64,000 bases of DNA, taken from a virus (lineage: Duplodnaviria > Heunggongvirae > Uroviricota > Caudoviricetes). Both the position numbers and the translations under genes were made by a program. Positions 2,937 through 59,468 of this stretch are shown in pieces; position 1 is the stretch's first letter, and each line of letters opens with the position of its first letter. The notes beneath the pieces are model-generated. The model did no database searches. It had not been told where the DNA came from and saw only the letters and a list, made by a program, of their open reading frames with translations. The stretch is taken from positions 33,901 through 97,900 of the IMG/VR virus record IMGVR_UViG_2908567220_000002; one strand, 5' to 3'.

Positions 2937-3731
2937 GTGGATCGGTGCGGTAATTATTTACTTAAAGATGGTCGCAGTTTAGGACAAGGGAGTTTTGGCG
3001 AAGTATTTAAGGTTGATGTCTATAACTTAACCCAGACCCACATGACCACATATGCTCGCAAATACTTTTCACCTTGCCCGGACTTTGACAAGACCGCTAT
3101 AAAAGAGTTGACTGATTTAAGACAGCGTTTTTTAGTTGAGATCAAAACACAATGCACTCTCAATAGAATAAACTATGATTCAATAGCGCCAATAGTTTTA
3201 TTTAATACAAATGGTGATAAACCTTATTTTGTTATGGAATTGGCAGAGTGTAACTTATATGAAGCCATCCGCAATGGTATGAATTACGCGGAGAGGAAGT
3301 CTGCTGTTACTCAGATTTTAAAAGGAATTATCACCATACATGAAAACAACTATATACATCGTGATTTAAAACCAGGAAACATACTTTATTATGCCGATGG
3401 AAAGTATAAAATATCTGATTTTGGTCTAGTAAAAGACAGAGATACCTTACGGGCCGAAATCAAAACAAAATTTAAGCCTAATCACATGGGCACAGATGGA
3501 TATCGAGCGCCCGAAATACATGATAGCGGTCTTTTTTCTTTTCAAAGCGACATATTTGCAGCAGGTAAAATTATCACTGATATATATCCCACAGAAAGAA
3601 GTGAAAAATTAAAAAGATTGATTGCAAAATGTTGCGCACATTGGCCTGAAGAACGATATCAAAGCACACGGGAGTTACTGGAAGATTTTTTAAAAGTGAC
3701 GGGGGAGGTAAATCATGAAGAACATAATTGA
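2937..3731 (+). CDS. Hanks-type Ser/Thr protein kinase
   Basis: 264 aa; G-loop GQGSFGEV, catalytic loop HRDLKPGN, DFG, GTDGYRAPE; AT-rich; candidate promoter TTGCAA-17-TATAAA upstream. Confidence 0.9.
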   Translation: MDRCGNYLLKDGRSLGQGSFGEVFKVDVYNLTQTHMTTYARKYFSPCPDFDKTAIKELTDLRQRFLVEIKTQCTLNRINYDSIAPIVLFNTNGDKPYFVMELAECNLYEAIRNGMNYAERKSAVTQILKGIITIHENNYIHRDLKPGNILYYADGKYKISDFGLVKDRDTLRAEIKTKFKPNHMGTDGYRAPEIHDSGLFSFQSDIFAAGKIITDIYPTERSEKLKRLIAKCCAHWPEERYQSTRELLEDFLKVTGEVNHEEHN

Positions 3732-4431
3732 AATGGCATGTTTTAGCCTAAAACAACCCCAAAAAAAAGAAAATGAAGACTTTTATTTACCGCCATCTTT
3801 TGATAGCGATTTTAACATTGTCTTTGCAGTAGCTGATGGGGTTGGTTCCTCTGAACATTCAATGCTTGCATCTCATGCAGCCATTCGTGGCATTAGACAC
3901 ACGCTAGGCACTTCCTTTTTCTCAATTGAAAGTGCATTTCATTCAGCTAAAAAAGAAATTGACAATTTAGATATTAGCACTGCCACAACCTTAACAATTG
4001 TTCAGATCAAAAAAAATGAAGTGTTAATTGGTCATTCCGGTGATTGCCGAGTATACTTCAATAAAAACAACAAACTAAATCAGTTAACCACTGATCAAAC
4101 GAGATATCAAGAACTCCTTGATTCTGGTGAACATAAATTACGTAATTTAAGAAATCATAAAGAACGGCTATCTTCAGTCCTAACGAATGCTTTATCAAAT
4201 ACAACGGATTTGAATTTTGAGTTAATGTCTTTTCCGATTAGCCAGCTAATTTATAATGGCTATCTTCAACTCTATGCAATGACTGATGGTGCCTATAAGC
4301 ATTGGGATGTCAGACCAAGGTTTTCTGAGAAGACAATGCTCTCACCAACAGCTTTTGCGAGTAGTTTAAGAAAAAGGATTGAGAAAAACATAATGGATGA
4401 TTACACTTTTATAGGCGTAAAAGTAACCTAA
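3715..4431 (+). CDS. PP2C (PPM) family Ser/Thr phosphatase
   Basis: 238 aa; NEDFY, VADGVGS, GHSGDCRVY, MTDGAY motifs; overlaps kinase gene by 17 nt. Confidence 0.85.
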   Translation: MKNIIEMACFSLKQPQKKENEDFYLPPSFDSDFNIVFAVADGVGSSEHSMLASHAAIRGIRHTLGTSFFSIESAFHSAKKEIDNLDISTATTLTIVQIKKNEVLIGHSGDCRVYFNKNNKLNQLTTDQTRYQELLDSGEHKLRNLRNHKERLSSVLTNALSNTTDLNFELMSFPISQLIYNGYLQLYAMTDGAYKHWDVRPRFSEKTMLSPTAFASSLRKRIEKNIMDDYTFIGVKVT

Positions 4432-8089: not shown

Positions 8090-8515
8090 TCAATGTACTG
8101 CCACAGCATTTCCTGCCGGGCCACCACGGTTCATCTGATTGAAACCGGCGATTGCCACTGCGACAAAATCATCAGCGTCTCTCACCAGTCGCTCCCGCGT
8201 CTCCACCAGCTCCCGAAAATAAGCTGAACTGTGGCTGCGCATTCGGGCCACCAGCAGAGGTGGCATTGCTTTTTCGATAGCTGGTAACAACGCCTGAATT
8301 TTTTTAACCGCATCAGGGGTGTCTTTCTCCACCCAGCGGAAAATTTTCTGAGTATTGCGAGCCAGGGCTTCCGGATGGCTGTCGTCATACAGTTCCGGGA
8401 ACGTCATTCCCAGCTCGAAATACGCTTTGGTAATTTTCGCAGCCGGTACTTTTTCGCCGTCCGGATGCGCCCAGGCATTCATCGCCATGCGGATGTGTTC
8501 ATGCTTGATTTTCAT
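8090..8515 (-). CDS. YdaT-like protein (CII position)
   Basis: 141 aa MKIKHEHIRMAMNAWAHPDGEK...; paralog at 56864..57289. Confidence 0.65.
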   Translation of the reverse strand: MKIKHEHIRMAMNAWAHPDGEKVPAAKITKAYFELGMTFPELYDDSHPEALARNTQKIFRWVEKDTPDAVKKIQALLPAIEKAMPPLLVARMRSHSSAYFRELVETRERLVRDADDFVAVAIAGFNQMNRGGPAGNAVAVH

Positions 8516-8766
8516 GAATCAACTCCCATCAGCTTTTTCGTAGTAGTTTTATTCCTGCCAATAGTTAAAATTGCATCGGCAGAAAATAATCCGTTTGATG
8601 CAAGAGCGATTTTTTCAGCGTAATTTGTTTCGCCGGTATATTCTGTGCGAGGCAATTTTCCGTTATCCATCCATTTATAGATTGCTCTTTGGCTGACACC
8701 ACAAACGTCGGCCACAACAGCAACGCGAACAGTTTTGATTACATCTTCAAGTGTTTTCTGGTTCAT
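8512..8766 (-). CDS. Cro-like HTH regulator
   Basis: Likely start MNQKTLEDVIKT (tracked ORF 8512..8838); divergent from repressor gene. Confidence 0.6.
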   Translation of the reverse strand: MNQKTLEDVIKTVRVAVVADVCGVSQRAIYKWMDNGKLPRTEYTGETNYAEKIALASNGLFSADAILTIGRNKTTTKKLMGVDS

Positions 8767-8845
8767 ATCACCCTCACAATGTGAACTTTGAGTACATGCT
8801 ATAACAGAACTGACAGTACATTCAAGAGCGAATATCATTGAACTT
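8767..8845. promoter_or_regulatory. Divergent promoter/operator region between cro-like and repressor genes
   Basis: Repeated AGTACAT-type half-sites (GAGTACATG, CAGTACATT); similar GTAC motifs downstream of repressor gene at ~9320-9370. Confidence 0.45.
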
Positions 8846-9265
8846 ATGGTTCATGAAGATAAAGCGCGTAAAGAGTTCGCCAGTAGGCTTGCGCTAGCCT
8901 GTGAAAACGCTGGTTATGAACAACATGGAAGGCAGGCAGAAATTGCCCGTCGAATGAAATTAACACCAAAAGCGGTTAGCAAATGGTTTAATGGCGAAAC
9001 AATTCCTCGCCGGGAGAAATTAAGGGAATTAGCAACACTAATAGGAACAACACCAACCTATCTTTTGGGAGAGGATACAGAAGAAAGTGGACAGGTACGT
9101 TTCTATCAGGAGTTAAATCCAAGACAAAAAATCATCATTGACCTTCTGGACGAGCTCCCTGACAGTGAGACAGATGAACTTTTAAAAACTCTTGAAGAGA
9201 AAAAACAGAAGTACAATGCAATTTACGAAGAGTTAGCACGAAAGAAAAAACAAAAAGCCTCTTAA
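8846..9265 (+). CDS. Prophage repressor (RacR/DicA-like HTH, no S24 peptidase domain)
   Basis: 139 aa; N-terminal HTH region; C-terminal 50 aa nearly identical to B's repressor at 57655..58074. Confidence 0.7.
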   Translation: MVHEDKARKEFASRLALACENAGYEQHGRQAEIARRMKLTPKAVSKWFNGETIPRREKLRELATLIGTTPTYLLGEDTEESGQVRFYQELNPRQKIIIDLLDELPDSETDELLKTLEEKKQKYNAIYEELARKKKQKAS

Positions 9266-9559
9266 ACCAGCATAAATCCGGTAGCGCCTTCCTCCGGGTT
9301 TGTGCTTCACTTTATCCCATCTCATTTTTTTACACACAAAATGTACTAAAAGTACTTTACAACAATGAACGCAAAGTACATTATATGCCTGCCACCCACC
9401 CCGCCCCACAGAATGCAGGGCAATACTTCGAGTTACCAGGCAGTGGTCAGGGGGTAAGTAGCCAGCCCGAGGCGTAAGAACATGACGGCAGGGTTCAACT
9501 TTAACTATGCAGCAGGTTTTTGTTCCGCTACCCCGGCGTTAAGGGGAAATGAGGTCAAC

Positions 9560-9715
9560 ATGGATACTATCGATCTTGGCAACAACGAATCTCTGGTATA
9601 CGGCGTGTTTCCCAACCAGGACGGAACGTTCACCGCGATGACGTATGCCAAAAGCAAAACGTTTAAAACCGAATCTGGCGCGCGTCGTTGGTTGGTAAGA
9701 CATTCAGGTGAATAA
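9560..9715 (+). CDS. ydfA: YdfA-like protein
   Basis: 51 aa MDTIDLGNNESLVYGVFPNQDGTFTAMTYAKSKTFKTESGARRWLVRHSGE. Confidence 0.75.
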   Translation: MDTIDLGNNESLVYGVFPNQDGTFTAMTYAKSKTFKTESGARRWLVRHSGE

Positions 9716-9716
9716 A

Positions 9717-9863
9717 ATGAACGAAACAGAATTAAAACACGTTATCGCTCTGCTTCTGGAGGATGCAAAACGCCTCCAGCAACTGGAACCAAATGCAGGC
9801 ACTGAAGCCCGCATCTGGCTGGCATTGTACGCTATTGAGTCAGGTCGTGATGATGAAGGTTAA
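9717..9863 (+). CDS. YdfB-like small protein (tentative)
   Basis: 48 aa MNETELKHVIALLLEDAKRLQQLEPNAGTEARIWLALYAIESGRDDEG; hand-translated, below track cutoff. Confidence 0.55.
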   Translation: MNETELKHVIALLLEDAKRLQQLEPNAGTEARIWLALYAIESGRDDEG

Positions 9864-10144
9864 GCATCATCTAAGTTTTTTACATAGCGCCCATTAGATT
9901 CGGTAACAAGAACACCGGGATTTTTCTTAACTTTTGAGGCCACTGATTCAGCAAGGTCAGCAACAGATTCTTTGTCTTCATTCTTGCTTGAATATATATA
10001 TTCGGCATTAGGAAGACGGTAGGTGTTCCCTAAAGAGGTTGTAATCGTTCTGGAGAATCCCTTTGCTTCCATTCGTTCATGAAGCTTATCGTAATCAGCG
10101 GAACTGGAATCGCGAAGTTCGATCCTGACTGTAAATTTTGCCAT
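9860..10144 (-). CDS. Hypothetical protein encoded antisense to the early-left operon
   Basis: Start MAKFTVRIELRD with GGAGGA SD 4 nt upstream. Confidence 0.5.
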   Translation of the reverse strand: MAKFTVRIELRDSSSADYDKLHERMEAKGFSRTITTSLGNTYRLPNAEYIYSSKNEDKESVADLAESVASKVKKNPGVLVTESNGRYVKNLDDA

Positions 10145-10159
10145 TTTATCCTCCATTTA

Positions 10160-10455
10160 GGTTCTGGGTTAGAAATGGAGACCAATACGGGGCTACGTGT
10201 GGTCGTGCGCCGGACACGGATAAGAATCCGGCACTGACAGTTTACTGAAAGGATATTTCCCTGAAAAGTCAGGGCATAACACGAAAGCGTACGGCGAAGG
10301 CCTTCACCTATGAGGCTTGTCGTTAATTTCTTCGACCGTGCGCTTCCGGTTGTGGCACTCCGCGAAATGGCGCGGCGGTAAGTATGGCGGGGTTATTCCT
10401 TCCCCCGTTGAGGACACCGGGTTGTCAGGTTGACCATACGCTTAAGTGACAACCC
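10160..10455 (+). other. Conserved non-coding element (also upstream of DicF in prophage B at 59100-59410)
   Basis: ~290 bp highly similar between prophages with small indels, no conserved ORF; inverted repeats GGGTTGTCA / TGACAACCC. Confidence 0.5.
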
Positions 10456-10504
10456 CGCCATAACTCATACTGCTATAGATATATGGGGACTAACCGGAGG
10501 AAAA

Positions 10505-10726
10505 ATGATAGTTCAATGCACAGACGGGAATAATAAGCTGCTCTGGTCATACGATACCGTCAGCCAGAAACACATAATGAATATGACTTTTATAAAGGAC
10601 GGTACTCAACAAAAAATCATTACCGCCCTTGCAAGTGCATTAACTCAGGCGACAAGCCAAATTCTGCTATCTGATAACGTTAATGGAGTATCTGATATTG
10701 GCTCGATGACCGGGAGGGAGTGCTAA
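10505..10726 (+). CDS. Small hypothetical protein (73 aa)
   Basis: GGAGG SD 5 nt before ATG; MIVQCTDGNNKLLWSYDTVSQKH...; lies in the segment that replaces DicF. Confidence 0.4.
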   Translation: MIVQCTDGNNKLLWSYDTVSQKHIMNMTFIKDGTQQKIITALASALTQATSQILLSDNVNGVSDIGSMTGREC

Positions 10727-10930
10727 TACAACATTCCAGTAACCCGAGTGGGGCACGGTAATATTGGCAGGGAATCGTTCATAGAAACCGCCGTAATAGG
10801 TAAAACGCCCGCCCCGCTTGAAAGCCTGGTAATTTGAATCATCCATTAATAAAACATTAATCTGGTGTGAACATTGAACCCTGACAAGGTCACCATCATT
10901 CATGTGTTCACGACTATGTATATGGGACAT
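10667..10930 (-). CDS. Small hypothetical protein (88 aa), convergent with and overlapping the preceding ORF by 60 nt
   Basis: AGGAG SD then ATG; MSHIHSREHMNDGDLVRVQCSHQINVLLMDDSNYQAFKRGGRFTYYGG... Confidence 0.5.
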   Translation of the reverse strand: MSHIHSREHMNDGDLVRVQCSHQINVLLMDDSNYQAFKRGGRFTYYGGFYERFPANITVPHSGYWNVVLALPPGHRANIRYSINVIR

Positions 10931-11456
10931 AAACACTCCTTTTTACTGTGGAAAGCTAAATCATATCACGGTCTATGAAGTAAAAAGTGAATTTCGTGAT
11001 GCGGTGAATGCGGCTCAGCGCACGCAGAACAGTTAAAAACACAAGTGTTATGGGTGAATCATCCGGCGTTAATTGCTAACTGGTTAACGTCACCTGGAGG
11101 CACCAGGCACCGCATCACAAAGTTCACTTAGGTGATGAAAGGTAGAGAAAATGTTGAATGTAGCTATTGAAAACCAGAACGGGTGGAATTATAGTGCACC
11201 TGCACCTCATAAAACGGGTGCCGGGCGTGGAAACCCGATGTTCACTAACGCGCATAACCGCGCTCAGGCGGTTTTTTTATGCGTAATGCACAGCCACATT
11301 CAGATTATGGTGGGACGTGCAGGGCAGCCGCAAGGCTGGCCGGGTTCGTTAGTGACCGGTATTTCCACCCCTGTACGTCTCACCACCCTTATGGTCGTGG
11401 AAAACCTTGGTGGTGAGTTAATCAAATTCACTAACGAGGCTGCTATCATGGCTACT

Positions 11457-12002
11457 ATCCCTACCCTTTCTCAACCTGACGTAACCATCGAAAATGGTCG
11501 CGCTGTCACTACGTCTGTTGCGATCGCCGAGTTCTTTGGCAAACGCCACGACAATGTTATTCAAAAAATAAAATTACTGGATTGCTCCCCTGAATTCACT
11601 GCCCTTAATTTTAAGGTGAGCGAATACACCGACTCAACCGGGCGCAAACTCCCTATGTACCAAATCACCAAAAACGGCTTCGTTTTCCTGGTGATGGGCT
11701 TCACGGGCAAAAAAGCCGCAGCTTTCAAGGAAGCCTACATCGCTGAATTCGATCGCATGGAGGCAGAGTTGTACCAGCTTAATACCACTACCACAGACAA
11801 AATAATTCCTGGTGATGGTCGCACTCTCGTTGTTCACTTCGACGAACGCGGCAATATCAAATTCACCGAAACCGTTCCTGACGGCGCTCTCGTCTGTACT
11901 CTGGATACTTTCCGCTTTTATCTGGAGAAGCAGGGGTGGACTCTTGTAAACAGGAGCGCAATTAAAAATATGACCGTCGAGCAGTTGCTGAGTATTAAAT
12001 AG
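11457..12002 (+). CDS. Rha-family phage regulatory protein (antirepressor-like)
   Basis: Start MATIPTLSQPDVTIENGRAVTTSVAIAEFFGKRHDNVIQKI matches Rha N-terminal domain; tracked ORF 11151..12002 extends upstream. Confidence 0.65.
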   Translation: MPTLSQPDVTIENGRAVTTSVAIAEFFGKRHDNVIQKIKLLDCSPEFTALNFKVSEYTDSTGRKLPMYQITKNGFVFLVMGFTGKKAAAFKEAYIAEFDRMEAELYQLNTTTTDKIIPGDGRTLVVHFDERGNIKFTETVPDGALVCTLDTFRFYLEKQGWTLVNRSAIKNMTVEQLLSIK

Positions 12003-12387: not shown

Positions 12388-14826
12388 TTGATGAGCACGA
12401 ATAAAGAAGTGTTTGCGCTATATTGCGAAGCTAAAAATGACAAGGTCAGAAAGCGTCTCGGTATTAAAGGTGGCTTTTTCTGGATCGAAGCCAAAAAACT
12501 TTCCGTTGCAGTTTCCCGCTGTATTGCCGCTATGGACGATGCTGGCTACGACGAAGATGATTTCAAAAAAACAGTTCGCGTCCATTTGCCTGTTCTAAAT
12601 GACCTGCCACCTGAAGGCGTATTTGATACTGATTTCTGTAACCGTTACGAAAAAGGTGGAGAAGATGGCATCACAATGATGCCGGTACCGTCCAGCAACA
12701 GCGATGAAAACAGTAACGCCGCTAATACTAACGTCAACGGCGAAGACATGATTGAGATTGAGGAGAATATTCTTCTGCCGGTTTCAGGTCAGCTTCTGCC
12801 TGTTAGATGGCTGGCACAGCACGGCAGCGAAAAACCTGTCACGCATGTTTCACGGGATGAACTGCGGGCATTACATAACGCACAGGAAGAAAAACTTCCC
12901 GCCGTTACCGCTCTGGCCATCTCAAATAAAGCAGTGCAACTCGAACCGCTGGAGATTCGGGATTTGTACAAACTGGTGCGGGACACTGACAAAGTTTTTC
13001 CCGCCCCCGTAAATTCAGACCTGGGACTGATGACTTCCTTCATCGAAGCATACCTGGACGCTGACTACACCAATCGCGATCTGCTTACAAAAGAGTGGAT
13101 GAAAGGAAATCATGTTTCGCGAATCAGCCGCACACCATCCGGCGCTAACGCTGGCGGCGGTATTCTTACCGATCGCGGCGAAGGTTTTGTACACGATGAT
13201 GCATCACTGGCGCGCGACGTAGCCACTGGCGTGCTGGCCCGTTCAATGGACGTGGACATTTATAACCTTCATCCGGCACACGCTAAACGCGTCGAGGAAA
13301 TTATCGCTGAAAATAAACCGCCCTTTTCTGTTTTCTTCAGCAAATTCATCACCATGCCGGGCCACAAGGATTTCTCCCGTGCCATCGTGGTTGCCTCCGT
13401 GAAAGAATCACCAGTTGGTATAGAGGCTATGCCCCACCGTGTCACCGAATACCTGAATAAAGTGCTGACTGAAACCGATCATGCCAACCCTGATCCGGAA
13501 ATCGTGGATATTGCCTGCGGTCGCTCCTCTGCCCCGATGCCGCAGCGTGTAACTGAAAAAGAAAAACATGATGAAGAAAAACCGCAACCATCTGGCGCAA
13601 TGGCAGATGAACAGGCAACGGCTGAAACAGTGGAACCGGATGCAACTGAACATCATCCGGACACGCAGCCGGTGGATGCTCAGCCACAGGTGAATTCTGT
13701 TGATGCGAAATATCAGAAACTGCGGGCAGAACTCCATGAAGCTAGGAAAAACATTTCGCCTAAAAATCCTGTCGACGCAAACAAATTACTGGCAGCCTCT
13801 CGCGGAGAATTTGTTGAAGGGATTAGTGACCCGAATGATCCGAAATGGGTTAAGGGGCTCCAGACTCGCGAGTCTTCGAACCAGAATCAACCAGAAGTGG
13901 AACAAACCAAGCCAGAATCGGGACAAAATAGCCAGGATGCACACCAAAATGAACCAAAAACGATACATCCGGAGCCAGCAGCGCAACATGCACAGAAAAA
14001 TCCCTGTAATGTTTGTGGGGAAACTGGCGGGGGCACATGCCCTGACTGTGCCTCAGTAATGGGTGACGCAACTTACCATGAGACATTCTGCGAGGAAGAT
14101 TCAGATGAATCTCAGGAAAAAGCTCCGGAGGAGATGGAAAACCCTGAACATCCGCATCCGGAAAATACTGACAGCAATCAGCATAACAATAGCGGTGATA
14201 AAACTGACAGGACGACAAATTCCTTAATTAATATGCACGGTCATCAGAAAAGAACATCCACCAGCAGAATGTGTCACCATCTGATGATCGACCTTGAAAC
14301 AATGGGAAAAAATCCTGATTCCCCGATTATCTCAATAGGTGCAATATTTTTCGATCCGCAAACCGGAGAGATGGGACCAGAATTTAATAAAACCATCGAT
14401 CTGGAAACTGCTGGCGGAGTCATTGATCGGGACGCGATCAAGTGGTGGCTGAAGCAATCACGCGAAGCGCAATCTGCCATTCTGACCGATGAAATCCCGT
14501 TAGATGATGCACTGCTGCAATTGCGGGAATTTATCGCCGAAAACTCCGGTGAATTGTTTGTTCAGGTCTGGGGAAATGGAGCCAACTTCGACAACGTGAT
14601 TTTGCGCCGTTCATATGAACGGCAGGGTATCCCCTGCCCGTGGCGCTACTACAACGATCGCGATGTACGCACAATCATTGAACTGGGAAAATCCATAGAC
14701 TTCGATGCCAGGACGCCTATTCAATTCGAAGGCATACGCCACAATGCGCTGGATGATGCCCGTCACCAGGCGAAATACGTTTCAGCAATCTGGCAAAAAC
14801 TGATCCCGAATCAGTCTGATTTTTAA
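12388..14826 (+). CDS. Large early-left protein with C-terminal DEDDh (DnaQ-like) 3-prime-5-prime exonuclease domain; exodeoxyribonuclease VIII-like position
   Basis: 812 aa; C-terminal [25 protein letters not shown] motifs; [15 protein letters not shown] zinc-ribbon-like motif; C-terminal ~190 aa identical to B's 60109..62580. Confidence 0.7.
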
Positions 14827-14889
14827 TGTTCAACCCCAGTCGTCGCCCCCAGCTATAGTGGCGGCGACCATGATTAGCGAACGATACTC

Positions 14890-15138
14890 ATGGCAAGACT
14901 TATTCTGCTCACTGAGTGGGCAAAAGAGGAATTCAGCGATCCGGTCCCTACTCCGGGCACGTTAAGTAAATACGCTAAAGCCGGAATGATATTTCCTCTC
15001 CCCAAAAAAGTTGGAAGACACTGGCGAGTGGATCCGCGAGCTCGCTTTGTCGGAATGGTAAACAAGCCGGAGGTGATCGCCACAGATCACCCTGCTTTAA
15101 AGAGGATACTGGAAGATGGCACGCCCGCGAAAATATAA
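14890..15138 (+). CDS. xis: Excisionase-like protein
   Basis: 82 aa immediately upstream of and overlapping int; identical copy at 62644..62892. Confidence 0.65.
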   Translation: MARLILLTEWAKEEFSDPVPTPGTLSKYAKAGMIFPLPKKVGRHWRVDPRARFVGMVNKPEVIATDHPALKRILEDGTPAKI

Positions 15139-16246
15139 AACCGCTGTTCCGGGATTATCTCCGTATTTTGACAAAAGAAATAACAAAGTTTACTGGCGTT
15201 ACAGGCATCCCATCACAGGTAAAAATCATGGACTCGGCAGTATTGACCAGAAACTGGCGGAAACCATTGCAGCAGAAGCGAACAGCCGTCTTGCCAGACA
15301 ACAAATGGAGCAAATGCTCAGTCTGCAGGAGAAAATTATTAGTGATACCGGCGGCGCATCAACCGTTTCCATTTTTCTGAATAATTACAGAAAAATTCAA
15401 CAGGAAAGATATGAGAACGGAGAGATCAAACTCAGCACGCTGAAGCAAAAAGCGGCTCCTCTCAGGGTGTTTGATGAACGTTTTGGAGCCAGGCCGCTAG
15501 ATGCCATAACAGTAAAAGATGTGGTATCGGTGCTGGAAGAATACAAGGCAAAGGGACATAACAGAATGGGACAAATTTTCAGGAAGGTATTGATCGATGT
15601 TTTCCGGGAGGCTCAACAAACGGGTGATGTCCCGCCAGGCTTTAACCCGGCTGAATCGGCAAAAAAACCGCAAGTGCGGATATCAAGACAGCGACTGACT
15701 TTTGATGAGTGGATGATGATTTATAACGCAGCGGAAAAGGATGGTTACTTTTTACAGCGCGGCATGCTGCTGGCACTGATGACGGGCCAGCGTCTTTCGG
15801 ATATTTGCAAAATGCAGTTTTCGGATATCCGGGATGGTTACCTTCATGTCGAACAGCAAAAAACAGGAGCCCGGATAGCCATTCCTCTGGCTCTGCGTTG
15901 CGACAAATTAAATCTTACCCTGGGTGACGTGGTGTCATCCTGTCGTGATTACATCCTTAGTCCGTGGTTATTGCACCATCATCACGCTAAGGGGATGGGT
16001 AAGCGCGGCGGGATGGTTAAACCAGCAACGTTAACAGTCGCATTTAAAAAAGCCCGGGATTCTGTGGATTACAACTGGCGTGCTAATGGCACGCCACCCT
16101 CTTTCCATGAGCAAAGATCTTTATCAGAACGATTGTTCAGAGAACAGGGAATTGATACCAAAATTTTGCTGGGCCATTCGAATCAAAAAATGACCGATGT
16201 TTACAACGATGCACGCGGTAAGGAGTGGAAAAAACTGGTCATTTGA
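15116..16246 (+). CDS. int: Tyrosine-type phage integrase
   Basis: 376 aa; terminal gene next to att region; intact version of B's disrupted copy. Confidence 0.9.
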   Translation: MARPRKYKTAVPGLSPYFDKRNNKVYWRYRHPITGKNHGLGSIDQKLAETIAAEANSRLARQQMEQMLSLQEKIISDTGGASTVSIFLNNYRKIQQERYENGEIKLSTLKQKAAPLRVFDERFGARPLDAITVKDVVSVLEEYKAKGHNRMGQIFRKVLIDVFREAQQTGDVPPGFNPAESAKKPQVRISRQRLTFDEWMMIYNAAEKDGYFLQRGMLLALMTGQRLSDICKMQFSDIRDGYLHVEQQKTGARIAIPLALRCDKLNLTLGDVVSSCRDYILSPWLLHHHHAKGMGKRGGMVKPATLTVAFKKARDSVDYNWRANGTPPSFHEQRSLSERLFREQGIDTKILLGHSNQKMTDVYNDARGKEWKKLVI

Positions 16247-45639: not shown

Positions 45640-46692
45640 TTATTTCCCCACCAGCTCGTTTATCTCTTTCACTGTCTGGTTAAACCGCTCTGACTCAAGC
45701 TCAACACCTAAGGCCCGACGCCCCAACGCCATTGCTGCTTTTATTGTGGAACCGGATCCCATAAAAAAATCAGCAACCAGATCACCTGGTCGACTACTGG
45801 CATTGATTATTTGCCTGAGCATATCCGCCGGTTTCTCACACGGATGTTTCCCCGGGTAGAACTGAACGGGTTTATGCATCCAGACATCGGTATAAGGCAC
45901 GGAGACTGATACGGAGAAATAGCGCCGGAGAGATTTAAACTCATCCAGCAATTCAGAATATTTACGATTCAGTGAATCATAAGATGCCACCAGCTGGTGG
46001 TGTGGTTGTTCCAGTTGTTGTTCCTGAAACTTCTCTGCCGCTATACGGGAAAACAGTGCCTGTAACTTCCGATAGTCAGCCTCATTCGGCAACTGCCACT
46101 GACTGGCACCAAACCAGTGGGAAACCATATTTTTCTTACCTGTGGCTTCGGCAATTTGTTTTGCCGTTATACCCAGTTCGGCACGAGCATCCCTGAAATA
46201 CGATATCAGCGGTGCCATTATGTGCTGTTTGAGTTCCCTTTCTTTTGCTGCATAGCCGTCACTTTTGCCGCGATATGGCCCCTGGTAATGTTCAGCAAAC
46301 AGAACGCGCTCTGTGGCAGGAAAATATGCGCGCAGACTTTCTTTATTACACCCATTCCAACGTCCGGACGGCTTCGCCCAGATGATATGGTTAAGCACGT
46401 TGAAACGTTCACGCATCATGATCTCAATATCAGATGCCAGGCGATGCCCACAGAACAGGTAAAGGCTTCCGGCAGGTTTTAACACCCGCCAGAACTGGGC
46501 CAGACAGTGGTCCAGCCACTTAAGGTAATCATCGTCGCCCTTCCACTGGTTATCCCAGCCCTCAGGCTTCACTTTAAAGTACGGCGGGTCCGTGACTATC
46601 AGGTCAACAGAATTTTCGGGTAACGACCGGATAAATTCCAGGCAGTCGGCGTTGATTAACTCACAACTGGATATTTTTACAGTATTAAGCAT
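45640..46692 (-). CDS. DNA methyltransferase (N6-adenine/N4-cytosine type, beta-class motif order)
   Basis: 350 aa; DPPY ([11 protein letters not shown]) near N-terminus and FxGxG-like FFMGSGST near C-terminus; between Q and holin. Confidence 0.85.
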
Positions 46693-49858: not shown

Positions 49859-50032
49859 TTATTCCCGAACTACCTTGAAACCGAGTCTTTCCAAGTATTC
49901 AATGAATGCCTCAACAGATAACACTACATGATCATCAGGAATTAACGCTGTGTAGGTAATACCCCCATTCTCAACGCGCACAGCATAGAGGCCATCTTCA
50001 CTAAAAATTTCACGTAATTCTTCGATTTTCAT
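49859..50032 (-). CDS. Small hypothetical protein (57 aa), part of inserted cassette
   Basis: Start MKIEELREIF with GGAAGGA SD; tracked ORF 49859..50080. Confidence 0.4.
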   Translation of the reverse strand: MKIEELREIFSEDGLYAVRVENGGITYTALIPDDHVVLSVEAFIEYLERLGFKVVRE

Positions 50033-50156
50033 CAACAGAATCCTTCCAGATAAATAGCACTCCCCCTGTTCGGGGTCCATCCCTCTTCTCCCTGCGCGCT
50101 ACTTAAGTATTTTTGATTCTATTCTGGCACCGTCCAAAACTTCAAACACGTTGAAA

Positions 50157-50189: not shown

Positions 50190-51296
50190 TCAAACAATCT
50201 GGAAAATATTTCTTGGATTTGTAATAGGTCTGTTGATGGAGAACAACTCACGAATTAAATCTTGGCTCAAGCCAGTTTTCATAAGAATTCTTAGCCAGGT
50301 TGCATCATCCAGCATTTCAATCGCCTCGGCCAGCATGCCGGGTTCTTCAGGGCGCAAAAGTTCATCACCAGGTTCAACTCTCGTATACCCTCTGGAATTA
50401 AGATGCATATAGCCAGTTCTTGCCTGTTCCTGGGTCAATAAGCCTAATGCGCTGGCTCGATAAATACACATTTTAAGGCTGATTTTCCATCTAAGTTTAA
50501 ATTCAACCAGAGCATTCCAGTCGAATTGCTTACCTCGTATTCGTGGAAATTCTTTAATGAAAGATAACCTGGGAACTAATAAGGCGCTCGAAAAGTGATC
50601 GGCTTGTGATTCCGTAAGTTTATCACCTGTCGTTATGCCCTCATGCATTACTAAATGCCCTAATTCATGACCTAAATCAGAGCGAAATCTACATATGCTT
50701 TTTTTAACATTGTTCCTGATGATAACAGGCCTGTTATTGTGAACAGTAAAAGCATCAACACGATCATCGACTCCCGTAACATGCGCAACGATTACCCCTA
50801 AACTCTCCGCCAATTTAACCATTGATGATATAGGGCCAAGACCTAAATTCCAGGCACGGCGACAATCTTCTGCCACTCGCTCAATATCATTCGGAGTAAG
50901 TAATTCAGCCCCTGGGTGCTCCGGTATGTTAACGTCAGGAAATTCGATTTCACCTTCAACAGCAGAAATTATAATATTAAGAATCTCAGCCCTGGCCAAT
51001 ACACTATTAGTCAGCGTTTGAGTCCTGGACTTCTTACTCCGAAAATGGCAGACATCACTTTCCAGAGCGTATTTTCGTTCAGTAAAAAGAAAACTGGACT
51101 TAATCATAAGCGCTGAAGATATTAACTCAAGACATTGCTCCGATGGCCTGCACCCCTTCTCCAGTTTGCTAACGAATTGCTTTGTCTTGCCAATTTTTTC
51201 GGCTAACTCTTCACAAGAAAGCCCAACAGCCATTCTCGCTAGTTTGAGCTTATCACCCCGATACTCAGTGAAGTTATTCACCTGATGTTCCATCAC
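50190..51296 (-). CDS. XRE-family HTH fused to ImmA/IrrE-type (M78) zinc metallopeptidase domain
   Basis: 368 aa; N-terminal HTH (KLKLARMAVGLSCEELAEKIGKTKQFVSKLE); HEXXH motif HELGHLVMHE. Confidence 0.8.
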   Translation of the reverse strand: MMEHQVNNFTEYRGDKLKLARMAVGLSCEELAEKIGKTKQFVSKLEKGCRPSEQCLELISSALMIKSSFLFTERKYALESDVCHFRSKKSRTQTLTNSVLARAEILNIIISAVEGEIEFPDVNIPEHPGAELLTPNDIERVAEDCRRAWNLGLGPISSMVKLAESLGVIVAHVTGVDDRVDAFTVHNNRPVIIRNNVKKSICRFRSDLGHELGHLVMHEGITTGDKLTESQADHFSSALLVPRLSFIKEFPRIRGKQFDWNALVEFKLRWKISLKMCIYRASALGLLTQEQARTGYMHLNSRGYTRVEPGDELLRPEEPGMLAEAIEMLDDATWLRILMKTGLSQDLIRELFSINRPITNPRNIFQIV

Positions 51297-51924
51297 TGCT
51301 CACATCCAAATCTTTATCCTTCGTACGCCGACGAAGAGGCACCTTATTAATCTCCGCTTCGTCAGGGAGTGTGTTATAATCAAGAGGCATAAGCGGCATC
51401 GATGCTGTAGATTGATGAGAAACTATACTAATCTGAGCACCATAAGTATTAAATCCAACAAGAGCTACCTCCCAACGAGGCAGTGTGGACTCTAATTCAC
51501 CATCGCCCTCTTCGGATAAAAAAGGCTCAGCTATGACTCGCCATGTAATATCTTGCTCAGCCTCAACATCACCAAACAATGAGAGCTGCTCATACTCTAC
51601 TTTATTTCGACGCAGACGATGTTTCTTTTTGGGGTTATTAATGCAATCTTTGGTAAATTGTAGCGGAACTTTATTTAAAGCAACTACATAGTCCAACCCC
51701 TTGGAAATCATCTCAAGGCCAGGAATTGCATCTTCATTTTGAATAAGATGATTTCTGACCCAATCATAAGCCCTTACACCTTCAGACCAGTTGCTGTCTA
51801 ATGCGTGCTTATGATAGTACAGCTGCTCAAGTACGTTAGCGATCTCCGCCAACAAGTGGCGAACATAGTTTTCAGCAAGATAAGGTTGAAATTCCCAACA
51901 AGGAGCTAACTGATTTTCATTCAT
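51274..51924 (-). CDS. Hypothetical 216-aa protein, upstream partner of the XRE-M78 gene (23-nt overlap)
   Basis: MNENQLAPCWEFQPYLAENYVRHLL...; no recognisable motif; candidate TTGACA promoter upstream at ~51983-51988. Confidence 0.55.
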   Translation of the reverse strand: MNENQLAPCWEFQPYLAENYVRHLLAEIANVLEQLYYHKHALDSNWSEGVRAYDWVRNHLIQNEDAIPGLEMISKGLDYVVALNKVPLQFTKDCINNPKKKHRLRRNKVEYEQLSLFGDVEAEQDITWRVIAEPFLSEEGDGELESTLPRWEVALVGFNTYGAQISIVSHQSTASMPLMPLDYNTLPDEAEINKVPLRRRTKDKDLDVSSDGTSGE

Positions 51925-52089: not shown

Positions 52090-52245
52090 TTACTCCTCAG
52101 GTTCGTAAGCTGTGAAGACAGCGACCTCCGTCTGCCCGGTTCGGATTCGTACCTCGCAGAGGTCTTTCCTCGTTACCAGTGCCGTCACTATGACGGTTAA
52201 ACAGATGACGATCAGGGCGATTAGCATCGCCTTTTGCTGCTTCAT
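52090..52245 (-). CDS. hok: Hok/Gef family type I toxin
   Basis: 51 aa MKQQKAMLIALIVICLTVIVTALVTRKDLCEVRIRTGQTEVAVFTAYEPEE. Confidence 0.9.
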   Translation of the reverse strand: MKQQKAMLIALIVICLTVIVTALVTRKDLCEVRIRTGQTEVAVFTAYEPEE

Positions 52246-52456
52246 AGCCTGCTTCTCCTTGCCTTTCGGCACGTAAGAGGCTAACCTACGTGTGTAGAGC
52301 ATAGATATGGCCTCAGATTAATGTTAAGCGTCTTGCCGGACGCGTAATGTTAACTGGGGCTTTTCTCTATCTGCCTTTTGGTGTTCATGCCTGAGACAGA
52401 TAGCCTCAAGCACCCGCTGCAATTCTACTTAACTCTCCTTTTCCCGCAAACCGTTT

Positions 52457-56863: not shown

Positions 56864-57289
56864 TTAGTGCATCACCACAGCATTCCCTGCCGGGCCGCCG
56901 CGATTCATCTGGTCATACAAAACAACCGCTGACGCAACAAAATCATCGACATCCTTCACCAGCCGATCCCTCCGTTCGACGATCTCACGGTAATATTCAG
57001 AACTGTGGCTGCGCATACGGGCCACCAGCAAAGGCGGCATCGCCTTTTCGATCGCCGGTAACAGAGCCTGCATTTTTTCAACAGCATCAGGGGTGTCTTT
57101 CTCTACCCAGCGGAAAATTTTCTGGGTATTGCGAGCCAGGGCTTCCGGATGGCTGTCGTCATACAGTTCTGGGAACGTCATACCCAACTCAAAATAAGCC
57201 TGGGTTATTCCAGCTGCTGGAACTTTTTCGCCATCAGGACGCGCCCAGGCATTCATCGCCATGCGGATGTGTTCATGCTTGATTTTCAT
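56864..57289 (-). CDS. YdaT-like protein (CII position)
   Basis: 141 aa MKIKHEHIRMAMNAWARPDGEK...; paralog of 8090..8515. Confidence 0.65.
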   Translation of the reverse strand: MKIKHEHIRMAMNAWARPDGEKVPAAGITQAYFELGMTFPELYDDSHPEALARNTQKIFRWVEKDTPDAVEKMQALLPAIEKAMPPLLVARMRSHSSEYYREIVERRDRLVKDVDDFVASAVVLYDQMNRGGPAGNAVVMH

Positions 57290-57554
57290 GAATCAAGCTC
57301 CTAGAAAGTGGTTGTGTTAACGTTTTGGTATCTTCCAGCTCGGGCCAAATATTCATCCAATCAAAAGGCCTTAGTTGCTGACGTGTAACTTCACCATTAC
57401 TGGCTCGCTCAATAAGGACACATAACGATGCCCCTAACACTTGACCTTTACTCAATGCCTTTCTTAGATAACCGATGCTGGTACCACACTCGCATGCAAA
57501 CATACGCTGTTCATCTGACGAAAGAGAATTGAGAAATATTCTTAATTCTTCCAT
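57273..57554 (-). CDS. YdaS/Cro-like HTH regulator
   Basis: 93 aa; ...GEVTRQQLRPFDW... resembles YdaS-type Cro; divergent from repressor gene. Confidence 0.6.
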   Translation of the reverse strand: MEELRIFLNSLSSDEQRMFACECGTSIGYLRKALSKGQVLGASLCVLIERASNGEVTRQQLRPFDWMNIWPELEDTKTLTQPLSRSLIHENQA

Positions 57555-57654
57555 AGCTACTCCTTAGTAAACACAGCAAAGAATACCCACAGGTAAACAA
57601 AAGTCAATACCCACAGGTTGTTTACCTTGCGGTAATCGCATCTATTATTTACCT
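57555..57654. promoter_or_regulatory. Divergent promoter/operator region (OR-like)
   Basis: Two direct AATACCCACAGGT repeats; related palindrome TACCCATGGGTA occurs twice at ~58110-58160. Confidence 0.5.
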
Positions 57655-58074
57655 ATGGACAAATATGAATTTAGACGACAGCAACTCATCAAAATTCGTG
57701 ATGAGAAATGCGATGGTAAAGCGGTTAACGTGGCCAGAAAGATCGGGCGCGAGCCTTCTTATGTATCAAGAATGTTGTACCCAGAGGGGAAAAAGGGAAA
57801 AAAACGGATCGCTGATGATATGGTGGAGATTATCGAAGAGTCCTTTGGGTTACCCCGGGGATGGATGGATGGTATCGTTTCATCATCAACGAACACAGCC
57901 TCCAGTTATGAAACAAGGGTTCTAACGCCACGACAACGTATTTTTTTAGATCTCTTAGACGAACTGCCAGAAAGTGAAGCGGATAAATTATTAAAAACTC
58001 TTGAAGAGAAAAAACAGTATTACAATATGATCTACGAAGAAATCCGTAAAAAGAAAGCACAAAACGCATCATAG
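57655..58074 (+). CDS. Prophage repressor (RacR/DicA-like HTH, no S24 peptidase domain)
   Basis: 139 aa; N-terminal region differs from A's repressor, C-terminal ~50 aa nearly identical. Confidence 0.7.
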   Translation: MDKYEFRRQQLIKIRDEKCDGKAVNVARKIGREPSYVSRMLYPEGKKGKKRIADDMVEIIEESFGLPRGWMDGIVSSSTNTASSYETRVLTPRQRIFLDLLDELPESEADKLLKTLEEKKQYYNMIYEEIRKKKAQNAS

Positions 58075-58339
58075 CTCACCAAACAACTAGTCACCAGTTA
58101 AGACACCGCAAAAATTTACCCATGGGTATTTACTTTTTAAATACCTATGGGTATCCTTCTTTTCATACCAACCCACCCCGCCCCACAGAATGCAGGGCAA
58201 TACTTCGAGTTACCAGGCAGTGGTCAGGGGTTAAGTAGCCAGCCCGAGGCGTAAGAACATGACGGCAGGGTTCAACTTTAATAACTATGCAGCAGGTTTT
58301 TGTTCCGCTACCCCGGCGTTAAGGGGAAATGAGGTCAGC

Positions 58340-58492
58340 ATGGATACTATCGATCTTGGCAACAGCGAATCTCTGGTATGTGGCGTGTTCCCCAACCAGG
58401 ACGGTACGTTCACCGCGATGACGTATACCAGAAGCAAAACGTTTAAAACTGAAGCTGGCGCGCGTCGCTGGTTAACCAGAAACACTGACTGA
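58340..58492 (+). CDS. ydfA: YdfA-like protein
   Basis: 50 aa MDTIDLGNSESLVCGVFPNQDGTFTAMTYTRSKTFKTEAGARRWLTRNTD. Confidence 0.75.
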   Translation: MDTIDLGNSESLVCGVFPNQDGTFTAMTYTRSKTFKTEAGARRWLTRNTD

Positions 58493-59411: not shown

Positions 59412-59468
59412 TTTTCTGGTGACGTTTGGCGGTATCAGTTTTACTCCGTGACTGCTCTGCCGCCCTTT
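59412..59468 (+). ncRNA. dicF: DicF small RNA
   Basis: TTTCTGGTGACGTTTGGCGGTATCAGTTTTACTCCGTGACTGCTCTGCCGCCCTTTTT matches DicF as recalled, including terminator hairpin and U-tail. Confidence 0.8.

Follow-up and report, generated by a model that had tools for sequence, protein, structure and literature searches.

How is lysogeny specified, and how might it end, when the repressor lacks an autocleavage domain? The window, the whole 64-kb stretch of DNA analysed here, raises this question twice: it contains two neighbouring E. coli prophages, A and B, each with a short repressor of lysogeny that belongs to the known DicA/Gifsy kind. The design is not new, as the DicA/Gifsy-type switch is common and largely understood. 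The anatomy of the two loci, their homologies, operator sets, domain architecture and prevalence can be read directly, and the best explanation is that A and B are probably a pair of lambdoid immunity switches, hetero-immune and of the DicA/Gifsy (GtgR) type.

Two immunity modules with shared borders

Both 139-aa proteins lie within classic lambdoid immunity modules comprising a YdaT/CII-like protein, Cro, OR, repressor and OL/PL (Table 1). Each occupies the cI position, divergent from cro, and the flanking operators overlap PR/PRM and PL. The elements described in an earlier sequence-only reading are all present, at or near where it had placed them. YdaT has been assigned the role of a CII analogue (PMC8630535).

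The two modules (8527-9393 and 57302-58170) are unrelated at the DNA level except for a stretch of 81% identity that encodes part of the repressor's C-terminal domain, and are bordered by a common ydaT (84%) and a common leader (95%). The leader downstream of both repressor genes is indeed shared, as had been claimed: 9394-9693 matches 58171-58473 at 95% identity, the match beginning no more than ~5 bp from the predicted PL starts. A search of the whole window against Rfam returned no match in the control regions or leader, and folding of the leader gave no stable structure, scoring worse than shuffled sequences (z +2.35); for these reasons no RNA element is proposed there. The two prophages are adjacent and co-oriented, with several segments 84-95% identical between them.

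Table 1. Features of immunity modules A and B and of the candidate antirepressor genes (window coordinates)
Feature	Position	Strand	Basis or remark
A YdaT-like protein (functional CII analogue), 141 aa	8090..8515	-	Pfam YdaT_toxin 1.1e-09
A Cro, 84 aa from ATG 8766	8512..8766	-	933W Cro match, phrog_35, GAGGG
A OR, three 15-bp operators	8782..8853	.	motif enrichment, alignment to 933W oR1-3/pR/pM, promoter scan
A OR1 TGAACTTTGAGTACA	8782-8796		predicted operator
A OR2 AGAACTGACAGTACA	8806-8820		predicted operator
A OR3 TGAACTTATGGTTCA	8839-8853		predicted operator; overlaps repressor ATG
A PR	8825-8798	-	predicted; promoter scan
A PRM	8810-8838	+	predicted; promoter scan; leaderless mRNA
Repressor A, 139 aa	8846..9265	+	N-terminal HTH aa 1-73, linker, C-terminal helical hairpin aa 90-139 (nt 9113-9262)
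A OL/PL	9342..9384	+	predicted PL -35 at 9356, -10 at 9379-9384
A OL operator TGTACTAAAAGTACT	9342-9356		predicted
A OL operator TGAACGCAAAGTACA	9366-9380		predicted
A early-left leader and ydfA (DUF1391; ATG 9560)	9394..9715	+	95% identical to 58171-58473
A candidate antirepressor module	11202..12002	+	isrK, orf45, C4-like RNA, Rha-family protein
isrK RNA (A)	11202-11278	+	Rfam 65.9 bits (gathering score 50)
orf45 (A), exactly 45 aa	11279-11416	+	follows isrK
C4-like antisense RNA (A)	11303-11390		Rfam C4 80.3 bits
A Rha-family protein	11448-12002	+	Pfam Phage_pRha 4.8e-31; C-terminal ~70 aa resemble Rem
B Rem-like candidate, 57 aa (73 aa if start 50080)	49859..50032	-	phrog_340 1.4e-17
B YdaT-like protein (CII analogue)	56864..57289	-	84% DNA identity with A copy
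B Cro (YdaS-like), 93 aa	57273..57554	-	YdaS_toxin 9.2e-06; mEp043 Cro 73% identical
B OR	57584..57648	.	motif search, promoter scan, mEp043 OR alignment
B OR operator TACCCACAGGTA	57584-57595		predicted
B OR operator TACCCACAGGTT	57608-57619		predicted; one mismatch to TACC-N4-GGTA
B OR operator TACCTTGCGGTA	57623-57634		predicted
B PR	57607-57580	-	predicted
B PRM	57621-57648	+	predicted; leaderless, ATG 57655
Repressor B, 139 aa	57655..58074	+	divergent HTH aa 1-72, linker 73-90, hairpin 92-138 (nt 57922-58071)
B OL/PL	58117..58159	+	motif matches
B OL operator TACCCATGGGTA	58117-58128		predicted
B OL operator TACCTATGGGTA	58142-58153		predicted
B PL, likely	-35 TTTACT 58131-58136, -10 TATCCT 58154-58159		by eye; under promoter-scan threshold
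B leader and ydfA, then DicF/DicB operon	58171..58492	+	matches A copy

Separate operator sets for the two repressors

The operator-like repeats had been reported to differ between A and B, and they do: each set is highly enriched and sits beside its own repressor gene. The A motif TG[AT]ACT-N3-AGT[AT]CA, allowing at most one mismatch, gave six matches against 0.53 expected, and five of the six (8782, 8806, 8839, 9342 and 9366) fall within the two control regions. These operators follow the pattern xG[A/T]ACT-N3-AGT[A/T]Cx, and the OL pair is spaced by 24 bp, as are OR1 and OR2. In phage 933W, operator recognition requires G-(A/T)-A-C at positions 2-5, with repressor residues K42 and K46 essential (PMC3317979); all ten A half-sites obey this rule. 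The DNA of A OR is 61% identical to that of 933W OR, the annotated oR1-3, pR and pM aligning position by position, so that the A operators have the positions and spacing seen in 933W.

For B, exact TACC-N4-GGTA occurs four times in the 64 kb against 0.96 expected, and all four sites (57584, 57623, 58117 and 58142) flank the repressor gene. Here the relative is mEp043, whose OR is 64% identical in DNA sequence and likewise contains TACC-N4-GGTA sites; its operators TACCtgtaGGTA, TACCcataGGTT and TACCggcaGGTA align with B OR, and a further pair in its OL, TACCtataGGTA and TACCtgtaGGTA, adjoins its annotated PL.

The Cro proteins differ as well. A Cro matches phrog_35 (6.8e-14) and shares 47% identity with 933W Cro across 68 aa; its start is most likely ATG 8766, giving 84 aa, rather than 8838. 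A GAGGG ribosome-binding site precedes ATG 8766, the annotation of phage vB_EcoS-673R7 has the 84-aa form, and the alternative 108-aa reading frame from 8838 would span the whole of OR.

DNA-binding halves related to cleavable cI repressors

The two repressors are 39% identical over 119 aa, mostly at the C-terminus (BLASTP). Across the last 50 aa the identity is 72% (36/50), and the corresponding DNA is 81% identical over 83 bp. The division into differing N-terminal halves and a common C-terminal ~50 aa therefore stands, but "nearly identical", as the latter had been called, overstates a match of 72%.

Repressor A contains an HTH_3 domain (Pfam, 1.8e-09); repressor B has no Pfam match, and neither protein matches an S24/peptidase family. 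Alignments to the cI proteins of the two relatives agree: that of A to 933W cI ends at residue 73 and that of B to mEp043 cI at residue 86, in both cases ahead of the S24 part, bearing out the earlier statement that neither repressor has an S24 domain. Within the aligned regions, the N-terminal domain of A is 51% identical to 933W cI, with K42 and K46 conserved, and B is 65% identical to mEp043 cI over aa 1-86; B also matches phrog_5736 at 6.4e-70. Compared with LexA-like cI proteins, then, A and B have the homologous N-terminal domain and matching operators and lack the C-terminal S24 Ser/Lys peptidase. With 139 aa, an N-terminal HTH and no S24 domain, both repressors agree with the DicA/GtgR type, whose members are small (about 135-150 aa). 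The kinship of the N-terminal halves, Cro and OR to the cleavable-cI phages 933W and mEp043 had been missed in the sequence-only reading.

As the DNA-binding domains, Cro proteins and operator sets all differ between A and B, hetero-immunity, which had been proposed earlier, is a sound inference from sequence. In the mechanism we propose, the 139-aa repressor of each switch would be made from a leaderless PRM transcript and would probably bind as a dimer to the three OR and two OL operators, which have two-fold symmetry. Bound repressor would shut PR, and with it Cro, YdaT and replication, as well as PL, which serves ydfA and the operon behind it, with the N-terminal HTH setting an imm933W-like specificity in A and an imm-mEp043-like specificity in B.

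A helical hairpin in place of the S24 peptidase

The place of the S24 peptidase is taken by a ~50-aa helical hairpin. Both repressors had been called RacR/DicA-style, and for the shared domain the DicA part is right and the RacR part wrong. The NCBIfam DicA model NF007257 matches A over residues 29-137 and B over residues 86-136; its scores (56.8 and 24.5 bits) are below the curated cut-off of 101, making A and B DicA-family relatives rather than orthologues. A C-terminal-domain profile, derived from A, B and fragments of the DicA type, gives 101 bits with A, 114 with B and 92 with full-length DicA, and only weakly (18.7 bits) with GtgR of Gifsy-2. RacR scores 0.2 bits, its likeness being limited to a 33-aa HTH stretch shared with repressor A (E 0.001).

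The domain, also covered by phrog_5736, was found by exhaustive HMM search in 169 protein clusters (50% identity) spread across Enterobacterales, always at the C-terminus of proteins of 115-185 aa; a word-indexed protein search gave fragments only. It is carried by at least two unrelated N-terminal types (superclusters of 93 and 31). This breadth bears on whether the shared end could merely reflect recent recombination or gene conversion between co-resident prophages, or whether the reading frames could be truncated cI pseudogenes. The adjacency, common orientation and 84-95% identical segments of the two prophages would allow such an origin. Against it, the C-terminal-domain DNA is 81% identical where neighbouring shared segments reach 95%, the domain is conserved in the 169 clusters, and the modules occur alone, A in 1049 and B in 824 E. 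coli genomes, and also in plaque-forming phages. We regard this origin as highly improbable.

A fold search of the domain had been suggested. AlphaFold2 modelling of repressor B (30-sequence alignment, pLDDT 91) predicts a five-helix HTH followed by helices at 92-103 and 106-138 (pLDDT >95), that is, a helical hairpin, and sequence searches of the PDB returned no solved relative of it. Foldseek matches cover the HTH domain only. The structural reading uses this alignment-based model, the single-sequence model of A being poor (pLDDT 53). Hydrophobic positions of the hairpin are conserved.

Most likely, the hairpin supplies dimerisation, and it is also most likely the docking surface for a Rem-family antirepressor; these roles are not mutually exclusive. 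One possibility would be that it is a dimerisation module only, replacing S24, in which case the antirepressor would bind the HTH and the shared tail would say nothing about cross-talk. The palindromic operators need a dimer, the source families of the N-terminal domains dimerise through the missing S24 domain, hydrophobic positions are conserved, and the genomic linkage to Rem/Rha is loose. However, two hetero-immune repressors with different operators respond to GfoA and GfhA (PMC3121763), and in the few loci available the type of Rem follows the C-terminal rather than the N-terminal domain. In Photorhabdus, moreover, both N-terminal types bear an identical C-terminal domain, which suggests constraint beyond simple dimerisation. 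A role in dimerisation alone is thus conceivable, if somewhat doubtful, and a predicted hairpin does not by itself reveal which surface an antirepressor would use.

Candidate antirepressors and the route to induction

As the repressors are without the peptidase, RecA should be unable to trigger their self-cleavage. Consistent with this, phage Tritos, whose CI repressor is 100% identical to repressor A, forms plaques, yet neither ciprofloxacin nor trimethoprim induced it (PMC9928086). Inactivation of the DicA/Gifsy family by antirepressors has been shown experimentally (PMC3121763, PMC10448788). Gifsy repressors are dimers that remain uncleaved; small antirepressors free the DNA of them, and a single antirepressor can target a pair of hetero-immune repressors (PMC3121763). 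With Rem, repression by DicA is relieved 165-fold (PMC10448788), and AnrP expression raises lytic-operon transcripts in Gifsy-1 (PMC4825925). Induction of A and B would, in the proposed mechanism, need titration by an antirepressor, the candidates being the 57-aa Rem-like protein of B and, in A, a Rha protein with a Rem-like C-terminal end, gated by the isrK and C4 RNAs.

The Rha gene of A is present, as reported, with its start at 11448 and not at 11457. The order isrK-orf45-Rha reproduces the layout of the Gifsy-1 isrK-orf45-anrP module. The C-terminal end of Rha matches phrog_340 at 5e-6, more weakly than the B protein does, and also phrog_2379, 'anti-repressor'. Because its C-terminal 70 aa match phrog_340 and it holds an AnrP-like place behind isrK and a 45-aa reading frame, Rha is, on sequence grounds, a plausible antirepressor of A; Rha proteins may instead be DNA-binding regulators.

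The Rem-like gene of B, which had been overlooked, has its own promoter-like site and is flanked by the RosmerTA terminator on one side and the ydfU-side genes on the other, a position like that of rem in Qin. Over its first 26 aa the protein shares 73-76% identity with Rem, and K-12 Rem itself belongs to phrog_340 (4.4e-21). The C-terminal end of A Rha and the B protein are mutual closest relatives (37% identical over 35 aa), a closeness that parallels that of the two repressor C-terminal domains (72%). An HTH-ImmA/IrrE protein upstream of the B gene was considered as an induction sensor and rejected, PADLOC assigning it, with its neighbour, to a RosmerTA defence pair, which is followed by a terminator ahead of the Rem-like gene.

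The pairing of C-terminal-domain and Rem types rests on four loci. In Serratia, a Rem-like protein of the type in B is found with a C-terminal domain of the 'TLEEKK' type that is joined to a different N-terminal domain, and in Citrobacter and Qin a K-12-type Rem accompanies a DicA-type C-terminal domain. A scan of IMG/VR yielded A-type loci only and hence no broad test of co-variation; within the fetched flanks, a Rha/Rem homologue was detectable near the A-type repressor in 5 of 80 contigs. Tritos has no Rem/Rha homologue at the Qin position, TRITO_42 having been rejected as not Rem-like, and neither Rem nor Rha homologues were detected at the Photorhabdus and Xenorhabdus loci. That the C-terminal domain mediates dimerisation, that the repressors are bound by an antirepressor, and which antirepressor would act on which repressor are all inferred.

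Exact and relaxed searches found no LexA box before any small ORF, and none near 50032-50140 or near 11100-11200; the only good LexA-like box, at 46665, has four mismatches and falls within the beginning of a methyltransferase gene. No LexA-controlled antirepressor gene of the Gifsy gfoA/gftA type was found.

An alternative induction route would be a stochastic flip of the Cro/repressor switch. Taken further, there may be no dedicated antirepressor, the competition between repressor and Cro flipping stochastically or on physical cues and the Rha/Rem-like genes serving otherwise. In keeping with this, ~1% of cells turn dicBp on spontaneously, and its response to urea and heat depends on neither Rem nor RecA (PMC10448788); production of Tritos is spontaneous and not a response to SOS induction, and most A-type loci are without a nearby Rem or Rha homologue. 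Yet expressed Rem strongly derepresses dicBp, a phrog_340 module is kept in both prophages, and the lytic-operon transcripts of Gifsy-1 rise with AnrP, which makes a switch free of antirepressors unlikely.

Relation to known switches

The DicA/DicC/Rem system of Qin shares with A and B a short HTH repressor with the C-terminal motif LxxxxxxLLxLFxxLPxSE...NxxxEEL, a divergent Cro-like gene, a PL-like promoter after the repressor that drives ydfA (plus dicF-dicB in B), and a Rem-family gene between hokD and ydfU. Unlike DicA, the N-terminal domain is 27% identical for A and shows no detectable likeness for B, the C-terminal domains being 23-33% identical. Cro is 933W-like (A) or YdaS/mEp043-like (B) rather than DicC, the Rem-like protein of B is close to Rem over the first 26 aa only, and A has no free-standing Rem.

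GfoR, GtgR and GfhR of Gifsy-1/-2/-3 (Lemire et al. 2011, PMC3121763) are of similar length, about 136-139 aa, and are non-cleaved and hetero-immune, as A and B probably are too; their antirepressors are GfoA, GftA and GfhA, and hetero-immune repressors are sensitive to one antirepressor (PMC3121763). GtgR has a weak version of the C-terminal motif, in a sequence comparison that covered GtgR alone of the three. Unlike in Gifsy, A and B yielded neither a LexA box nor a dinI-linked small gene, and the putative GftA reading frame belongs to a different PHROG (4847) from the Rem-like proteins.

In 933W and mEp043, with their LexA-like S24 cI, the N-terminal domains, Cro, OR layout and operator consensus are homologous to those described here, and the number of sites in A, three in OR and two in OL, is that of 933W. 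In contrast, A and B have the 50-aa hairpin instead of the S24 autocleavage/oligomerisation domain, and a Qin/Rac-like downstream operon without an N gene. The PaaR2/YdaS/YdaT module of CP-933P (PMC8630535) resembles both in layout: its repressor gene is leaderless, a Cro analogue is present, YdaT serves as CII analogue, and there are OR and OL operator sets. Unlike CP-933P, A and B have no paaA2-parE2 toxin-antitoxin genes behind the repressor. SinR/SinI of Bacillus subtilis is an architectural analogue only, an HTH joined to a C-terminal two-helix oligomerisation module targeted by a small antagonist. It is among the Foldseek matches (1B0N), with a superposition poor overall (rmsd about 11 Å), a lead rather than evidence of membership.

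Significance and prevalence

These results name two very common, generically annotated regulators of E. coli prophages, the A-type module occurring in 19% and the B-type in 15% of complete genomes. They indicate that lambdoid phages can exchange the parts that set immunity specificity (the N-terminal domain with Cro and the operators) separately from those that set the mode of induction, be it S24 self-cleavage or a hairpin with an antirepressor.

A more far-reaching reading, tentative and as a whole rather unlikely, joins these elements: A and B would be non-cleavable repressors with 933W/mEp043 specificity, A conferring immunity against, or repression of, Stx2 phages, and the hairpin would be the handle for co-firing. 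If so, the A-type module, found in ~19% of E. coli genomes, could make its hosts immune to 933W-type Stx2 phages in an SOS-proof manner, or could instead repress these phages in trans and dampen toxin production. Should the 933W-like specificity of A hold, common commensal prophages could affect both superinfection by and induction of Shiga-toxin phages. Similarly, if the C-terminal domain is an antirepressor handle, one Rem-family antirepressor may fire both tandem prophages together through the hairpin, which would explain joint induction of hetero-immune prophages. In E. coli NZ_CP062910, prophage B lies at ompW, without the tandem arrangement of the window.

Chimeric repressors with a common C-terminal domain

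A sequence-only reading had described the repressors of A and B, the two prophages in the window, as chimeric, with different DNA-binding halves, a nearly identical C-terminal ~50 aa and no autocleavage (S24) domain. The observation is real, and its interpretation is supported in part. The A/B alignment begins near residue 28 of A and 21 of B (39% identity), and the DNA-binding halves before it differ. The main seat of identity is the last 50 residues (36/50, 72%); this domain is common to both repressors, but "nearly identical" was too strong. Pfam finds HTH_3 in the A repressor, no match in the B repressor, and a peptidase domain in neither, in line with the missing S24 domain. "Chimeric" is apt, as a cI-type DNA-binding module is fused to a different C-terminal module. 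Annotation calls both merely "helix-turn-helix transcriptional regulator" or "transcriptional regulator".

The NCBIfam DicA model spans the C-terminal domain in both repressors, below its curated cut-off, and phrog_5736 covers both proteins. When a profile of the domain was searched against 1.84 billion cluster representatives (E <= 1e-3), 169 clusters carried it, almost all at the extreme C-terminus of 115-185-aa proteins. BLAST of the N-terminal regions from 126 full-length members gave two unrelated superclusters: one of 93 members (XRE/HTH_3 type, with A and DicA) and one of 31 (B type). Among species-representative genomes, the domain occurs in Escherichia, Shigella, Citrobacter, Serratia, Xenorhabdus, Photorhabdus and Arsenophonus. 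Different Photorhabdus prophages combine an identical 50-aa domain with one or the other N-terminal type, and so illustrate this shuffling more cleanly. Together, the superclusters and the Photorhabdus pair indicate that the pattern in the window, one C-terminal domain on unrelated N-terminal halves, is recurrent. With the same profile, Gifsy-2 GtgR shows a weak motif (18.7 bits) and RacR none, so the earlier description of the repressors as RacR-style does not fit this domain.

Neither a Pfam family nor a solved structure was found for the domain. In an AlphaFold2 model of the B repressor (pLDDT 91, 30-sequence alignment), the HTH domain (residues 1-72) and a less confident linker (73-90) precede helices 92-103 and 106-138, which are joined by an invariant LPxSE turn. 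Foldseek matches to solved structures were confined to the HTH domain; the best is 5D50, a Rep-Ant complex of a Salmonella phage, and SinR, also among them, is an architectural analogue. Gifsy repressors have been likened to the cI N-terminal domain only (Lemire et al., PMC3121763), and the hairpin as a discrete, widely shuffled domain was not found stated in the literature examined.

Immunity modules related to 933W and mEp043

A tblastn search of phage genomes found relatives of both N-terminal halves in full-length, S24-bearing cI proteins. Identity to cI of the Stx phage 933W (235 aa) is 51% for A residues 1-73; for B residues 1-86, identity to cI of phage mEp043 (228 aa) is 65%, and these two HTH regions are almost identical. 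For A/933W and B/mEp043, respectively, identity is 47% and 73% between the Cro proteins and 61% and 64% between the OR (right operator) DNAs.

The operators of A and B also differ, as had been proposed, and each set lies beside its own repressor gene. With at most one mismatch, TG[AT]ACT-N3-AGT[AT]CA occurs six times in the window (0.53 expected), five of them in the A control regions. For TACC-N4-GGTA, the 64 kb contain four exact matches against 0.96 expected, each of them adjoining the B repressor gene, as does a fifth site with one mismatch. The annotated 933W operators (oR1 CGTACTTTCAGTACG, oR2 TGAACTGAAAGTTTT, oR3 CGTACTCATGGTTCA) share position and spacing with the three A OR sites, and OR3 lies over the repressor start codon in both. 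In published work, 933W cI recognises symmetric 15-bp sites in which positions 2-5 read G-(A/T)-A-C, has five natural sites and depends on K42 and K46 (PMC3317979). The A repressor likewise has five sites, with G-(A/T)-A-C in 10/10 half-sites, and both lysines are conserved in it. In mEp043, TACC-N4-GGTA sites lie in OR and beside its annotated PL.

The operator assignments are thus predicted from comparison and one experimentally characterised relative. By these resemblances, the DNA-binding half, Cro and operators of A appear to belong to the imm933W family and their B counterparts to the imm-mEp043 family, a membership not found stated in the literature examined. The most interesting consequence is a predicted operator specificity common with a Stx phage repressor. 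Like A, which carries a Ser/Thr kinase gene (Table), 933W has an stk kinase gene ~0.9 kb downstream of cI.

Promoter-like hexamers overlap the predicted operators in both prophages. These put the PRM start at or beside the repressor ATG, so the repressor mRNA is predicted to be leaderless, like those of lambda cI and PaaR2. The B OL (left operator) pair forms an inverted repeat (16-bp stem, then a T-rich run) 43 nt past the repressor stop codon, and may also be a terminator of the PRM transcript, ahead of the toxic dicB operon.

Prophage layout

The early regions of A and B, both lambdoid and in the same orientation, lie within the window. In both, the minus strand carries replication genes, a YdaT-like gene and the Cro gene, and the plus strand a divergent 139-aa repressor gene, then a promoter region into ydfA (DUF1391). 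In a blastn self-comparison of the window, the 867-869 bp between ydaT and the leader are unrelated in A and B, one 83-bp island excepted, a mosaic of the kind classically seen where immunity regions are exchanged. The leader had rightly been called common to both; two gene starts had been placed slightly off (Table).

Features of the two prophages (A / B where paired)
Feature	Prophage	Coordinates	Strand	Match or identity
hok/sok locus	A / B	2371-2696 / 52090-52415		
Ser/Thr kinase gene overlapping PP2C-type phosphatase gene	A	2937-4431	plus	kinase: PD-T4-6/mad6-like, 1e-37
ydaT	A / B	8101-8526 / 56875-57301		84%
Cro gene start, corrected	A	8766		
OR sites	A	8782, 8806, 8839		
Repressor gene	A / B	8846-9265 / 57655-58074	plus	
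83-bp island, 3' end of repressor genes	A / B	9149-9231 / 57958-58040		81%
OL sites	A	9342, 9366		
OL inverted repeat and T-rich run	B	58117-58163		
Leader and ydfA	A / B	9394-9693 / 58171-58473		95%
Diverged left operon	A	9860-12002		
Weak GhoS-like ORF	A	9860-10156	minus	
DUF1883 ORF	A	10667-10936	minus	
Ash match	A	11151-11447		PF10554, 1.7e-17
Rha-family gene (start corrected)	A	11448-12002		C-terminal ~70 residues: phrog_340 (5e-6), "anti-repressor" PHROG
Left operon, Qin-like: DicF RNA, DicB, YdfD	B	59414-60013		
Exonuclease C-terminal end, xis, integrase	A / B	13774-16246 / 61528-64000		95%
Integrase gene	A	15116-16246		
DNA methyltransferase gene		45640-46692	minus	
LexA-box-like sequence		46665-46684		4 mismatches
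Rem-like ORF, 57 aa	B	49859-50032	minus	phrog_340, 1.4e-17
RmrA, HTH-M78 peptidase	B	50190-51296	minus	6e-105
RmrT	B	51274-51924	minus	4.6e-25

The B tail genes start ~2 kb past the A integrase gene, and the integrase type is common to both. This spacing and the 95% identical exonuclease-xis-integrase segments suggest two hetero-immune phages with the same integrase, integrated in tandem. Past the common ydfA leader the left operons diverge: where B has DicF/DicB/YdfD, A has the GhoS-like and DUF1883 ORFs and an isrK/C4/orf45/Rha module. Each prophage has a hok/sok toxin-antisense locus (sok matches of 110 and 117 bits; HokD 98-100% identical to K-12).

Proposed dimerisation and antirepression

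Palindromic operators need a dimer, and the S24 dimerisation domain of the parent families is missing, making the C-terminal hairpin the obvious replacement; it would stand in for the lost domain in a repressor dimer. This agrees with Gifsy repressors, which are dimers by gel filtration. They are uncleaved; small antirepressors release them from DNA, and GfoA and GfhA act on two hetero-immune repressors (PMC3121763). Induction of A and B would likewise proceed via an antirepressor. Such a system, a DicA/Gifsy non-cleavable repressor with an antirepressor, is already known. The dicBp promoter can also flip spontaneously without Rem, which relieves DicA repression 165-fold (PMC10448788).

The B Rem-like ORF occupies the place of rem in the K-12 prophage Qin. 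K-12 Rem is 73-76% identical to the first 26 residues of the B protein and itself matches phrog_340 (4.4e-21). No free-standing Rem-like gene was found in A; the C-terminal ~70 residues of its Rha protein are 37% identical to the B Rem-like protein. Upstream of the Rha gene lie isrK RNA, a 45-aa ORF and a C4-like RNA, the layout of Gifsy-1 isrK-orf45-anrP, where AnrP expression gives more lytic-operon transcripts (PMC4825925). The Pfam Ash match falls on part of a long ORF overlapping the isrK and C4 RNA genes, and may represent translated RNA genes, not a real protein.

In Qin and Citrobacter, K-12-type Rem was found together with a DicA-type C-terminal domain. In prophage B and in Serratia, a Rem-like protein of the B kind was found with a "TLEEKK"-type domain, the Serratia N-terminal domain being of another type than that of B. 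The Rem-like domains of A and B are mutually closest, as are their C-terminal domains. This small co-variation, over four loci, fits a C-terminal domain acting as antirepressor docking site and raises the possibility that the tandem prophages are cross-induced. Linkage of Rha/Rem to A-type repressors is loose (5/80 IMG/VR contigs). No LexA box was found before the B Rem-like ORF or the A Rha module; the best LexA-box-like sequence of the window, AACTGGATATTTTTACAGTA, lies inside a DNA methyltransferase gene, at its first codons.

Phage Tritos, prevalence and defence genes

Tritos, a phage of E. coli LF82, has a repressor 100% identical to that of A. Its lysogen expresses the repressor gene and releases phage spontaneously, MG1655 serves as a plaquing host, and ciprofloxacin and trimethoprim did not raise phage production (PMC9928086). 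This non-induction is what would be expected of a RecA-uncleavable repressor in a prophage without an SOS-linked antirepressor. In Tritos, no Rem-like gene was found at the Qin position. Of 5426 complete E. coli genomes, 1049 carry the A module and 824 the B module, each nearly always as a single copy.

The B nin region carries a RosmerTA-like anti-phage defence pair, separated by a terminator from the Rem-like gene. Tritos lysogens express the same pair at high levels (PMC9928086). In A, the overlapping kinase and PP2C phosphatase genes probably form a defence or exclusion pair.
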